Of a stretch of DNA of 64,000 nt, positions 2,499-57,633 are shown piece after piece; positions within the stretch are counted from its first letter, which is position 1; every line of letters begins with the position of its first letter. This DNA is from Octopus vulgaris (taxonomy: Eukaryota). The notes beneath the pieces are model-generated. The model worked only from the letters and a program-made list of their open reading frames with translations, did no database searches and was not told the origin of the DNA. The DNA is taken from NCBI GenBank assembly GCA_951406725.2, contig OX597817.1, positions 62,558,001 through 62,622,000 of the forward strand, written 5' to 3'. Position numbers and translations under genes: made by a program.

Positions 2499-2982
2499 TA
2501 GATAGATAGATAGATACACATGTATATATTCAAATATATCTATATATAAATATATTACATAATATACTATATATTATACACTTACACACACACACACATA
2601 CACACGCGCTCACACACACACACACACACATACACACGCGCTCACACACACACACACACACGCACACATACATACACACATGCAATGAGTTTATATGTTT
2701 AGCTAAGCGGGATAAATAATTTGTTGAACTCATTTAGGAATGCGATCCTGCTACCACAGATTTTATATCAGTGAACATATCGATCAGTAACATGAAACAT
2801 TTGTTAATAACTTCAGATGTATAAATTATTTCGAGAGAGAGAGAGAGAGAGAGAAAGAGAGTGAGACAGACAAAGAGACAGACAGGTACGCAGGCACGCA
2901 GGCCGGCAAACAGACAGAGAGACAGGTACGCAGGCAAACTGGCAACAGAGACAGACAAAGAGACAGAAACAGACACAGAGAA

Positions 2983-3213
2983 GGCGGCGAGCTGGCAGAA
3001 TCGTTAGCACGCCGGGCGAAATCCGTAGCCGTATTTCGTCTGTCGCTACGTTCTGAGTTCAAATTCCGCCGAGGTCGACTTTGCCTTTCATCCTTTCGGG
3101 GTCGATTAAATAAGTACCAGTTACGCACTGGGGTCGATATAATTGTCTTAATCCGTTTGTCTGTCCTTGTTTGTCCCCTCTGTGTTTAGCCCCTTGTGGG
3201 GAGTAAAGAAATA
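2983..3213 (+). mobile_element. SINE family A, young full-length copy (tRNA-derived head)
   Basis: Head GGCGGCGAGCTGGCAGAATCGTTAGCAC with B-box-like GAGTTCAAATTCC; body GAGGTCGACTTTGCCTTTCATCCTTTCGGGGTCGAT..AATAAGTACCAG (resembles the Deu/Nin-type SINE central domain, from memory); A-rich tail. Probable TSD AGAAACAGA(C/G)A(C/G)AGAGA at 2965-2981 and 3214-3230. Many homologous copies in the window. Confidence 0.9.
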
Positions 3214-13830: not shown

Positions 13831-14582
13831 TTTTTAATATACAACAAATTATGTAACCCTTATTTTTGGCAATTCAGCGATACTGGGTTGTATAGAAGCA
13901 AAATTATTCAGCTAAACTTGTAGCCGTAGAATTAGGTAGGTGAGAGAGAGAGTGTGTGAGAGAGAGTGTGTGTGAGAGAGAGAGTGTGTATATGTGTATG
14001 TGTTAAAGAGAGAGCGCGTGTGAGCGTGTGTGAGCGTATGTGTGTGTATGTGTGTGTGTTTGTGAGCGAGCATGAGATAGAAACCGTGTCCATGAGTGTG
14101 TGTATGTGTGTGTGTTTCCGCAAGAGAGACAGAGACAGAGACAGAAAAACTGACGAGGAACGAGCAAGAAAGTAAGTGAAAGGAATGAATAACATAGTAA
14201 TCCATTGCGTTTGTAAAGCTCCTTAGGCAGGTAATCTCACTCTGTTATCTAATTACTGTTTTAAACGCATTGTATCATCTACATTTACTCTCTCTGCCTC
14301 AGCTACACTCTCTCATGCATTCAATATAACGATGTAACCTGCATAGCCGAAATTACGATAGAACAATTGCTTTGCTGATGATACCTTAAGAAGCAGAAAC
14401 ATAGGAGCCCAGCCGTAATTTTATCTCCGAACAAAGAATCTGACTTTTACTGAAGAACAGTTTTAGGAAATTCTAGATACTTGATTATACACCTACATAT
14501 TTGGAGTTGGTTCCAGTAGATTCTAACCAATTTGTCAACCCTGTCTGGAAACGGAAATGATTGCAATATATCAAGAGCTTCA

Positions 14583-14905
14583 GGCGGCGAGCTGTCAGAA
14601 ACGTTAGCACGCTGGGCGAAATGCGTAGCCGTATTTCGTCTGGCGTTACGTTCTGAGTTCAAATTCCGCCAAGGTTGATTTTGCCTTTTATCCTTCCGGG
14701 GTCGATAAATTAAGTACCAGTTACGCACTGGGGTCGATGTAATCGACTTAATCCCTTTGTGCGTCCTTGTTTGTCCCCTTATCCCATTGTGGGCAATAAA
14801 GAAATAAGAAATGTTAGCACGCCGGGCGAAATTCTTAGCGGTATTTCGTCTGTCCTTACGTTCCGAGTTCAAATTACGCCGAGTTCGACTCTGCATTTCA
14901 TCCGA
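14583..14905 (+). mobile_element. SINE family A head-to-tail dimer (full copy plus a copy missing the first ~15 nt)
   Basis: The full copy 14583-14807 runs directly into AGAAATGTTAGCACGCCGGGCGAAAT...CCGAGTTCGACT. Confidence 0.88.
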
Positions 14906-39831: not shown

Positions 39832-41672
39832 ATAACTCAGATAACTTAGATTGGTTTCGGCCATTATCGGCACAGGTCATAACTAACTCAATAGCACCAC
39901 CTGGAAAAGTCTTGTAGTTAACTATTTCGGGACACCATTGACCAATCGAGCAGAGGGTCGTTGTTGGTTGAGATTTATCCAGGTGTAGGTATCTTATCCG
40001 GTATTTCCTGGAGGAATTTGTCCAGGTACCGTTTGAAAGTTGTGAGGTCTTTTTCTACTTTAATTTTTTGAGGGATAACATTGAAAAGTGCAGGACCATT
40101 CGCAGAGAAGAAATTGTGTCACAATGTTCTTATGTGATGTGATCTCGACCTTTGTAGGGGACGCATTGCACGGGGGCCCAGTTTTGGGTGAATTGTAAAC
40201 ATGTCAATATCATTTGGATAATATTGGTGGAATATTTTCCACATGGTGCAAATAATGTATCGCACACGGCGGCGTTGCAGAGAATAGAGCTTCAGCTGTG
40301 TAAGTCGAACCCAATAATCAAGTTCCATCATGCCATCTATTATTTTTTTGTATGTGTGATTGGTCTTTGTGGCGCTTCGATCCTTTTTATGTCTTGTTTT
40401 ATGTAGGGGGATCACAATGGGCAGCAGTATTCGAGGTGGGGCCTAGCGACTGTAGAGAAGAGAAGGATGATGGTTTCATGATCCCTAGATTAGAAAGTTC
40501 TGAGGATCCATGAGCACATTCTGCGGGCAACATGGACTTTTTGTGGATGTGCACACTCTAACTAAGGTTGCTGTCGGCAGTTACACCTAAGTCTCTGATA
40601 TTATCCGACGGTTCAATTAGGTCTCCTGACGGTAGTGTATATGGTTGTTTGAGTGTGCCCTTTTTCCAAAGTGGATGAGCTCAAATCTATTTCGTTCAAC
40701 TGCATATTGTTTTTGTTTTTTTGTACCCACTACGTTACTGCGTATAGATCCGATTGAAGCTTTGCTCGGTCATATGCCCCCTTAATGACTTTCTGGAGCT
40801 TAGAATCATCTACAAATATTTTTATGATGCTATGTTCTAATGAATCTGCAATGTCATTGATATAGACAATAAAAAGAAGTGGACCCAGTACACTACCCTG
40901 CGGGACTCCGCTGATGACTTTTCTGGTCTTAATTGAATGCCATCAACCACAACATCCTAGGTCCTGTTTGTTAGGAAATATCTAATCCGTTGAAGTAGCT
41001 TTCCACCGACTCCAGCGTTGGATAGTTTCTTTAACAGTATATTGTGGTTGACTCTATCAAAGGCTTTACTGAAATCAAGGTTTACGACATCCGCTTTGGA
41101 GCCTTCACTTAGTGCATTTAGATGTTATTCTTAGGCTGTTATTCTTGATCTCAACACTTTGATGATATGTGAGGTGAGAGAGATTGGACGGTAGTTTACA
41201 AGGAATAATTTATTCCCCTTTTTAAAGATAAGAACGACTGACTGGGAGAGAAGGTTTTGAGGGATAAAACCGGCGTCCAGTGGTTTCCTCCAGAGCTTTG
41301 CAAGAGGAGCTGCAAGTTACTACCTGCATTCCTTTAGCACTCTAGCAGGGAACCTGTCTGGACCCACTACCGAATCAGGTTTGATTTCTTTTATTGCTGC
41401 TAGGTTATCAGTGACGTCGAAGTTTATCTCGGAAAGGACATGTTGAGGATTCAGAGAAGCAAAGTTGCTGGAGTCAGCTAAATCAGGGTCACTGAAGACA
41501 GAGCAGAATTGATTTTGCAGGATCTCAGCCATATTTTTGGCATTACTGTGAATGATGTCGTTTCCGTCCGCCAGTGGGGCTATAGAGGAAACTGTGGTCC
41601 TATGTGTTTTTGCAAAGAAGTAAAAGACCTTAGGATTATTCTTGATGTTTTTAATAGCCCAGGTTTCCTCTG
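39832..41672 (-). pseudogene. 5'-truncated CR1-clade LINE: RT domain, C-terminus and 3' UTR
   Basis: Minus-strand motifs GPDRFPARVLKEC, NYRPISLTSHIIKV, DVVNLDFSKAFDRVNH, SGVPQGSVLGPLLFIVYIND, IFVDDSKL, RDLGV, RPHLEYCCPL, YSLQRRR and FKRYLDKFLQEIPD, with stops and frameshifts. Confidence 0.92.
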
Positions 41673-41679
41673 CTACACG

Positions 41680-41749
<70 letters not shown>

Positions 41750-42307
41750 CGTGGAGTATAACTAACATGTATAATGTAATGATATATTTGATCGTGCGTT
41801 TTTTACAAATATTTGAACCTTGACTTCAAAGCAATAAAATACTGTTAATGCGTAAGTCGAAAATATCTAGTAAATAAAACTTCTCTAAAAGATCATACAT
41901 GTAAGTAAATATCTTTAAATAATATAAGCTACATATACTCAAACAAACATGTACTATATACATATATATATATTTGCATATATATATATATGTATATATA
42001 TATATATCCATTCAGGTAAGGCAATATGTTATTCTACAAACTATTTCTCCTTTTCTATAATAAACGGCAACTTTGCTGTTGAATATTGCTCAAGTACGTG
42101 CCGGTACTCAATAAACACCGGTTACTCTCATTCTTAAATTGTTTCTAAATTATAAATTAACCATTCTGGTCATATGCTGTGACATGAAGCAATGTAAAGC
42201 TAATTAAACAAGACACAAGGTTTGTTTATGATTAGAATAACAAGGGAACTTCTGTTCATGAAAAATATCCAGTAAAACATTTGCACGATAGTATGAAGAG
42301 TGATTGT

Positions 42308-43482: not shown

Positions 43483-43519
43483 GGGGAAGAGGAGGAGGAG
43501 CTGTAATAATAGTAATAAT

Positions 43520-43735
43520 CTCAAATATTGGCACAAATCCAGCAATTTCGAGGGAAGAGGTAAATCGATTACATCGACCCCACTGCTCAACTGGTACTTT
43601 ATTTTATCGACCACGAAAAGATGAAAAGTAAAGTCGAACTCACCGGGATCTGAATTCAGAACGTAGAGAACCGGAAAACGTAGCATATTGCATTTTGTCC
43701 GACACCCTAATCACTGCGCCTATCCAACGCCCTTC
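43520..43735 (-). mobile_element. SINE family A (older tail subtype)
   Basis: GGCACAAATCCAGCAATTTCG..CGATTACATCGACCCC..CTGGTACTTTATTTTATCGACC..GAATTCAGAACGT. Confidence 0.8.
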
Positions 43736-43916
43736 AAATAATCCTTTCTGTTATAGGCTCAAGACCAGAAAATGCTGAGGGTTGTTAACATTGGCTTCAG
43801 TGTTCAACTGGAATTTTTTTATCAACCCCGAACGGATGAAAATTTTAATTCGGCCTCGGCTGAAACGCCCTTTCAATAGAATAAAGGGTAAAGACATCCC
43901 TCGGTCAGGAATAACC

Positions 43917-44063
43917 TATTTTTTTACTACCCACAAGGGGCTGAACGCAGAGAGGACAAACAAGGGTAGACGAACGGATTAAGTCGATTATATCGACCCC
44001 AGTGCGTAACTGGTACTTATTTAATCTACCCCGAAAGGATGAAAGGCAAAGTCAACCTCGGCG
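43917..44063 (-). mobile_element. 5'-truncated young SINE family A copy
   Basis: TATTTTTTTACTACCCACAAGGGG...GAAAGGATGAAAGGCAAAGTCAACCTCGGCG is the reverse complement of the 3' part of 2983-3213. Confidence 0.92.
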
Positions 44064-44559
44064 ATGATGAACAAACGCTTTTTCAAAATTAGTGGCATTT
44101 CACCCAATTTAGAAGTTATTATTTGGAGGTGCATGGCTCAGCGACAAGAGCATCGGGCTTACAATCGTGAGGCTGTGAGTTCGATTCCCACACTGGACTG
44201 AGTGTTCACCCAGTTCGTTCAGTTGTAGAAATGAATTGTGATGTTACTGGTGCCGAGTTGTATTGGCCTAGGTGCAATCGCATGGTTATTCCAGCCCAGT
44301 GTAGGAATCGAACTCACAGCCTCACGGTCAGGAATAGCCATGCGATTGCACCTAGGCCAATACAACTCGGCACCAGTAACATCACAATCCATTTCTACAG
44401 CTGAACGAACTGGGTGAACACTCAGTCCAGTGTGGGAATCGAACTCACAGCCTCACGATTGTAAGCCCGATGCTCTTGTCGCTGAGCCATGCACCTCCAA
44501 ATAATAACTTCTAAATTGGGTGAAATGCCACTAATTTTGAAAAAGAGCTTGTTCATCAT
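44064..44559. repeat. Near-perfect inverted repeat: 229-bp arms, 38-bp spacer
   Basis: 44064-44292 is the reverse complement of 44331-44559 with about 5 mismatches by eye. Each arm contains a tRNA-type SINE head (GGAGGTGCATGGCTCAG..GAGTTCGATTCCC). Confidence 0.95.
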
Positions 44560-44850
44560 ATCGTTGAGTACACAACTCAACTGGTTGTTTATTTTATCGT
44601 TCCTGAAGGGTGAAAAGCAATCCATCACTGTTTTGTTTCTCATTAAAGCATGGGTTCAGATATCTCCGGAACGCGGATTAAATAGATCCCAGAAGTTGAT
44701 TCAGTAAAATATATTAACAGTCAATAAATTTGCAGTTGGACACTGCAGATAATAACCAATTGAAAATATAACTATAGCTACAATATTATAACCATATCTT
44801 TTCATTTAGCTCCGGCTTATCAAATGCGTTTTAACATTCTATCCGAACAA

Positions 44851-45062
44851 GGTGGCAAGCTAATAGAATCGTTACAGCGCCGGGCAAAACTGCTTAGCGG
44901 CATTTCGTCTATCTTTATACTCTGAGTGTAAATTCCGCCGCGGTCCTCTTTGCCTTTCATCTTTCGGGATCGATAAAGTAAATACCAGTTGAGTACTGGA
45001 GTCAATGCGATCGACTAACTCCCTCTCCCGAAATTGCTGGCCTTGTATCAAAATTTGAAATC
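44851..45062 (+). mobile_element. SINE family A full copy (older tail) with ~13-bp TSD
   Basis: TSD AT(T/G)CTATCCGAAC at 44836-44848 and 45066-45078; tail GCTGGCCTTGTATCAAAATTTGAAATC. Confidence 0.88.
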
Positions 45063-45199
45063 AGTATGCTATCCGAACGTTTACTAAAATCTATGCAAAT
45101 TTTAAGCTGTCTAGTTCACTGATTGACCTCTGAAGATAATACACTAGATGGCCCACCACTTCAAACAGTACCAGGGATTTAGCGGCGTAATTTGATACG

Positions 45200-55394: not shown

Positions 55395-57199
<1,805 letters not shown>

Positions 57200-57633
57200 G
57201 GACACACATATGTATATATATACATATATGTAAATATATATATATATACATATATATACGCATATATTTATACATGCATATGTACATAAATGTATGTATA
57301 CACATGTGTGTGAGTATGTGTGTGTGTGGGTTGGTGGCTGTATGAATGTGAGTGTTTGTGTGTGTTAGTGTGTGTGTGCGCGCGCGTGTGTGTGTGTGTG
57401 CGCGTGTGTGTGTGTGTATTTGCATGTGTGTATGTATATGTATATACAGACTACCGTTAATGCAGCTCGCCTCAGAATTCTCATCCAAGAAATTCCATGG
57501 ATTTTCATACAAATAACGTTATAGAATATAAATATATAAGCACGCATAGTCATACACACACGCGGACGCGTACGAATATGTATGTATTTATACCCACGTA
57601 CATTTATGTGATCGTAAGTTGTATGTGCATGTG

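Follow-up and report, generated by a model that had tools for sequence, protein, structure and literature searches.

A 5'-truncated SINE joined to an inverted copy of its own flank in Octopus vulgaris, compared with foldback inversions at human L1

Foldback inversions in described systems

Foldback inversions upstream of human somatic L1 insertions have been described in three events (0.3%) and one further event (0.1%), and were termed 'process C' by Nam et al. 2023, being ascribed to extra DNA synthesis late in insertion (PMC10191854). Two L1 cases that kept the target-site duplication have been put down to a reciprocal end that anneals to itself (bioRxiv 10.1101/2024.12.14.628481, Fig. 4A,D,E). 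Such ends are expected from target-primed reverse transcription (TPRT) with duplication, where the second nick is made at the other edge of the target and 3' overhangs are left (PMC4760211). In the repair of DNA breaks, SD-MMEJ produces direct repeats by loop-out and inverted repeats by snap-back (PMC5728401), and fold-back synthesis by yeast Pol delta is a long-tract alternative (PMC10622511).

The octopus locus described here works like the foldback inverted duplications at human L1, a described class that is rarer than ordinary insertions. As in 'process C', flanking DNA from the 5' side follows the element in inverted form, over 52-220 bp there and 229 bp here (PMC10191854). Those were L1 insertions in human somatic clones (PMC10191854); here the element is a SINE in the genome assembly of an animal, the copies are old enough to have accumulated substitutions, and a 32-nt direct copy lies in the loop. 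The likeness to the reciprocal-end model of L1 lies in the kept duplication and in a 3' end that would self-anneal, prime synthesis and join the end made by reverse transcriptase (RT), whereas a small hairpin with 2-bp homology directly at the end was described there (bioRxiv 10.1101/2024.12.14.628481) and a prior loop-out plus an imperfect 4-of-6 fold-back, around a loop of 38 nt, is proposed here. With SD-MMEJ the locus has in common a direct repeat as expected from loop-out and an inverted repeat as expected from snap-back, together with candidate short primer repeats; however, SD-MMEJ is known from breaks made by nucleases, where synthesis is short and non-processive and 229 nt would be long (PMC5728401). 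The extra nucleotides at the 5' ends of zebrafish LINEs and the snap-backs of R2 likewise place DNA from the flank or from a fold-back at the 5' junction, but they mostly comprise a few nucleotides or are primed by the cDNA end, and come from cultured cells (PMC4245944, PMC4760211, PMC11371274). No SINE or invertebrate example of the foldback class was found in the main text of open-access papers, which makes this a weak negative. What the locus adds is a SINE, an inherited non-mammalian site and an extra templated loop, with two successive templated steps.

Architecture of the locus

The window, by which we mean the whole 64-kb stretch analysed, is repeat-rich, with a GC content of 30-39% and long simple repeats. 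Within it, a 15-bp direct repeat (14/15 identity) brackets an insert in three parts: a truncated SINE, then 229 bp of flank copied in inverted orientation, and finally 32 bp of flank copied in direct orientation. The first-pass annotation had proposed such a repeat around three pieces, and all of its coordinates hold. Even with up to three mismatches allowed, the 15-mer matched the + strand of the window at these two places only. The features, from left to right, are as follows.

43867-43901, - strand: repeat left of the target, with a depth of 611, 1163 and 183 in public runs X1, X6 and X9
43902-43916, + strand: left target-site duplication, 13-15 bp, its first 2 nt common to the loop-out template
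43917-44063, - strand: tRNA-type SINE 'A', 5'-truncated, with an A-rich tail against the left duplication and promoter boxes absent
44064-44292, + strand: left arm, an inverted copy of 44331-44559 and putative snap-back product, with a tRNA-like head from 44128
44128-44538, + strand: read-through unit predicted for Pol III, with 407 nt up to the first T4 and a 165-bp stem
44293-44324, + strand: loop piece, a direct copy of 44424-44455, where the head of the older SINE has its B box and T-arm, and putative loop-out product
44325-44339, + strand: right target-site duplication, presumably the 3' overhang of the second-strand end
44331-44559, - strand: original flank and right arm, comprising an older SINE 'B' with its head at 44495 and 64 nt of unique flank
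44495-44088, - strand: predicted mirror Pol III unit

The insert carries the hallmarks of target-primed insertion, namely a bracketing duplication, an A-rich 3' tail against one duplication, 5' truncation and a dispersed high-copy family. The SINE A fragment, already recognised in the annotation as a 5'-truncated minus-strand copy, is 91.8% identical to the full-length copy at 2982-3213 and is without the first 85 nt. There are 22 SINE A matches in the window, the query and the 43917-44063 copy included, and the summed depth of the family in public runs reached up to 8e7. Public reads of this family extend beyond 44063 with letters unlike those of the window. L1 targets the motif TTTT/A, and the target here is not such a site. 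Named octopus SINEs are OK, OR1 and OR2, of the CORE superfamily. OR1 or OR2 appears as a CORE SINE in the literature (PMC4824008, PMC4758252).

The structural features of the foldback class are likewise present: an inverted flank copy lies 5' of the element and is joined to its truncation point, the duplication is kept, and the fold is near the reciprocal end. The ends of the extra DNA coincide exactly with the SINE truncation point and with the edge of the right duplication, and because both sit there, the extra DNA is tied to the SINE insertion. The left arm agrees with the reverse complement of 44331-44559 at 224/229 positions (2.2% different, 95% CI 0.7-5.0%) and stops 9 nt within the right duplication, so that the proposed 229-bp inverted copy of the downstream flank, ending inside the duplicated site, was borne out. 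One SINE pair 41 kb apart aside, the two arms form the sole local inverted self-match in the window of at least 80 nt at 88% or more. At 44223, where the arms differ, both letters are present among paralogs. The direct copy, which had been put at about 30 bp, comprises 32 nt strictly between the junctions; over the extended match, 44292-44326 equals 44423-44457 at 33/35 positions, and two differences have a probability of 0.18 at the substitution rate of the arms. This piece makes up most of the 38-nt loop of the hairpin. The 496-bp palindrome at 44064-44559 folds at -447 kcal/mol, which none of 100 shuffles matched, a trivial outcome for such a repeat.

SINE A is truncated at 44063, where its B box ends; the loop piece corresponds to the B-box/T-arm of the older SINE. 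Three B boxes are thus left within 270 bp around 44063 and 44293-44324, possibly by chance.

The repeat at 43867-43901 is likely the tail of the older SINE that was interrupted by the insertion: these 35 nt left of the target had a depth of 611 against 40 on the flank contig in run X1, which fits, without proving it, the first-pass reading that the empty site would be one continuous older SINE. No second copy of SINE B was found in the 64-kb window, where one extra match was at chance level, and scans of metagenome contigs and genome contigs for relatives gave 0 matches.

Older SINE A-like remnants in both orientations crowd the site (43513-43700, 43798-43864, 44564-44620 and 44849-45066), and two of them form a 92-nt inverted pair of 74% identity, 1370 nt apart. 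The inverted flank copy terminates right where the remnant at 44564 starts. Elsewhere in the window, a tandem or nested insertion at 14582-14903 (+ strand) consists of a full SINE A copy with about 97 nt of another SINE A head directly behind it. A stop-free frame at 41320-41802 (- strand) and two frames at 55395-57364 (- strand) had no Pfam match at E 0.01, and the Pfam search with four ORFs of the window gave nothing at the cut-off. We take the later part of the former to resemble a fragment of a LINE ORF2 from the region that precedes the RT domain, and the latter frames presumably resemble a decayed Penelope-type RT plus GIY-YIG endonuclease.

Origin of the inverted and direct flank copies

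The locus was probably formed in one retrotransposition event, during which the broken end opposite the cDNA would have extended itself twice before joining. Judging from the orientation and the tail of the SINE, the + strand would have been nicked after the target, priming the cDNA that is now 43917-44063. Under the established TPRT geometry, a second nick, in the minus strand 13-15 nt away, would have provided the right-hand end with a 3' overhang. The tip of this overhang may then have looped out, pairing over 2 nt with the + strand at 44456-44457, upon which 32 nt would have been copied. In a subsequent snap-back, the new 3' end would have folded over and paired imperfectly, at 4 of 6 positions, with its own overhang, and 229 nt of its own strand would have been copied. 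Unwinding of the product and a join to the truncated cDNA at 0-2 nt of homology would have followed, gap filling then fixing both strands. Candidate polymerases are host enzymes of the theta or delta type, or the RT.

The geometry of the nicks argues for the overhang as the copying end. As the SINE lies on the minus strand, its cDNA is the + strand. The first-strand nick is placed at 44339/44340 in the right copy and the inverted copy runs 9 nt across it; the cDNA could not have copied the arm from the same molecule, because the + strand template 44559-44331 would span the nick. By contrast, both templates are found on one end, where the minus strand is unbroken over 44331-44559 and the + strand over 44424-44457, and the minus-strand 3' overhang, unlike the cDNA, is able to make both pieces in cis. 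Furthermore, the copy begins 6 nt from the overhang tip at the edge of the right duplication, which agrees with the requirement for a fold-back. The first-pass annotation had attributed the flank copies to jumps of the cDNA, by RT template jumping or by templated insertion with a repair polymerase; a single target-primed insertion with templated flank copies stands as the best reading, whereas the cDNA as the copier is disfavoured, since its template would cross the nick. A drawback of the fold-back from the overhang is that the + strand has to be present during the loop-out and displaced or resected during the snap-back.

The short homologies were less telling. The observed fold-back register ranked 6/50, 2/103, 4/289, 3/52, 3/105 and 4/298 in six models and was never first, and its energy of -3.1 kcal/mol was equalled or bettered by 163 of 200 shuffles. 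The 2-nt homology of the loop-out at 44325 is offered by 12 of 361 sites. At the outer junction, what looked like homology was rejected as chance, since 15.6% of 5000 random pairs did as well or better.

The best of the alternatives, which we regard as unlikely, is that the 3' end of the cDNA jumped to an intact + strand template, such as the sister chromatid, the homologue or a nascent + strand transcript read by the RT, and copied 44559->44331; in this form the reading of the annotation would survive. A switch to the minus strand or a self-fold for 32 nt would then have followed, and annealing to the overhang tip. The same junction homologies would be usable for these jumps, and precedents for their parts have been described: insertions by the R2 protein include a class of junctions in which the cDNA snaps back on itself or on target DNA close by (PMC11371274), a nearby pre-mRNA was co-inserted in one case (PMC10191854), and the extra nucleotides at LINE 5' ends are often templated by the flank (PMC4245944, PMC4760211). 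Nevertheless, a second molecule is required whose template is continuous over the first-strand nick, and the stop 9 nt inside the duplicated site is left unexplained, while a fold-back from the overhang predicts it. The junction homologies and the fold-back fit both routes equally, and the nick argument alone separates the two.

It is quite improbable that two events were involved, with an ordinary truncated SINE inserted first and the copies added at its 5' junction by a later break or replication template switch. In favour of this order, the SINE looks further removed from its family (3-7 differing letters out of 147, up to 9 with ambiguous sites) than one arm is from the other: 7/147 letters of the fragment are unlike both of two young window copies, while the arms differ at 5/229 (Fisher p 0.011). 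The gap is not significant when only the 3-4 letters backed by read majorities are counted (p 0.23-0.41), and it could also come from variants of the source element or from arm-to-arm conversion as well as from a later event. In addition, the later event must have hit the SINE/duplication junction within 2 nt and without loss.

An assembly artefact is more improbable still, whether through a chimeric fold-back read or through the mis-joining of haplotypes. We compared contigs of four public runs (X1, X4, X6 and X9 of 24 listed, X2 and X3 being the other good matches) to 43490-44339, a stretch of 850 bases with one arm, at 90% likeness; three of the 24 listed runs, which come from two studies, contain more than half of the locus words. 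The difference of 2% between the arms is of the size that two haplotypes could show, and none of the contigs listed crossed the inversion junctions at 44063/4, 44292/3 and 44324/5 under a 31-letter bridging rule, paralogs flooding the output. However, independent substitutions distinguish the pieces, five between the arms, two in the loop piece and one in the duplication, and because arms, loop piece and duplication each have their own, a read chimera is disfavoured. A chimera would not give a third, separately mutated 32-nt copy ending on the duplicated target. One site is moreover present three times, the A at 43914 in the left duplication being common to the left arm and the G at 44337 in the right duplication differing from both other copies, as in copies ageing in place. 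The depth of the outer arm in X1 was also 1.9 times that of the flank contig (77 vs 40), depth not being copy number.

The individual runs agreed with the window to different extents. Run X1, which may be the source of the assembly, has a 344-nt contig over 43596-43939 with 0 differences that enters the SINE by 23 nt. In run X4, which belongs to another study, an 89-nt contig matches this SINE copy at 43914-44002 with 1 difference, compared with 3-8 for the listed paralogs. In run X6 (organism B), record 24 follows the arm for 100 nt at 44193-44292 with 3 differences like the right arm and leaves it at 44292; a filled allele of the window type would break it after 72 nt, which leans towards an empty site, but the start at 44193 is the fork expected from two arms, and the arm depth of 97-144 in X6 exceeds the 30-50 of its contigs. 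Among the listed contigs of the four runs, organisms B and C included, there was no clear empty allele. Zero depth at 44331-44339 in X4, X6 and X9 (9.2 in X1) had been considered a sign of one and was dropped, as these letters can be placed on the left arm.

A DNA element of the palindromic foldback or MITE type, or a recurring composite, is scarcely credible as the identity of 44064-44559: the 496 bp do form a near-perfect palindrome and repeat families of palindromic build are known, frog Harbinger among them (PMC5625713), but the palindrome is not bracketed by the duplication, of which one copy lies inside it, and the near single-copy outer arms largely refute it at 90% likeness. The depth of the outer arm 44070-44127 was 77, 97-144 and 13-14 in three DNA-type runs, against 1e5-1e7 for true repeats, and at this likeness the recurrence of the composite at unrelated loci, which the annotation had raised against its own reading, did not materialise.

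Predicted hairpin RNA and its meaning for octopus

Each arm carries one tRNA-like head, and the two converge. Both scored 22.7 bits with the Rfam tRNA model, below the gathering score of 29, and each has an A box with one mismatch and a perfect B box against the box consensus. The near-perfect inverted repeat with two convergent Pol III-type heads, as described from the first inspection, is therefore present with near-consensus A and B boxes and sub-threshold tRNA scores. ARAGORN gave 0 tRNA genes in the window, and Rfam, besides these two heads, gave simple-repeat miRNA matches only. From either head, a Pol III RNA of 407 nt with a 165-bp stem could possibly be made, and a role of the hairpin as dsRNA or ADAR substrate is possible as well. 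No RNA run was listed among those rich in the locus words; run X4, which we guess to be RNA, has no cover at 44099-44127 and is uninformative on expression.

Most likely the hairpin is a neutral scar. In octopus, an unusually high share of random loci, 0.44% (4.4 in 1000), can form long dsRNA (PMC5625713), and because the genome is already rich in such loci, one more hairpin is unremarkable. A more far-reaching reading, to which we give little credence, is that SINE fold-back repair would be a standing source of near-perfect hairpin loci in this lineage and that the present one would be a newborn Pol III hairpin gene, its RNA being ADAR-edited or diced; the long dsRNA reported in unusual abundance for octopus would then be fed by retrotransposition.

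As read here, the locus cleanly documents that in retrotransposition the end facing the cDNA stays free and is remodelled, and it extends an observation on human somatic L1 to a SINE and to an inherited, non-mammalian locus. If the rate of about 0.4% seen among somatic human L1 insertions held for so abundant a family, many such palindromes would be expected, which would make them a testable source of dsRNA.
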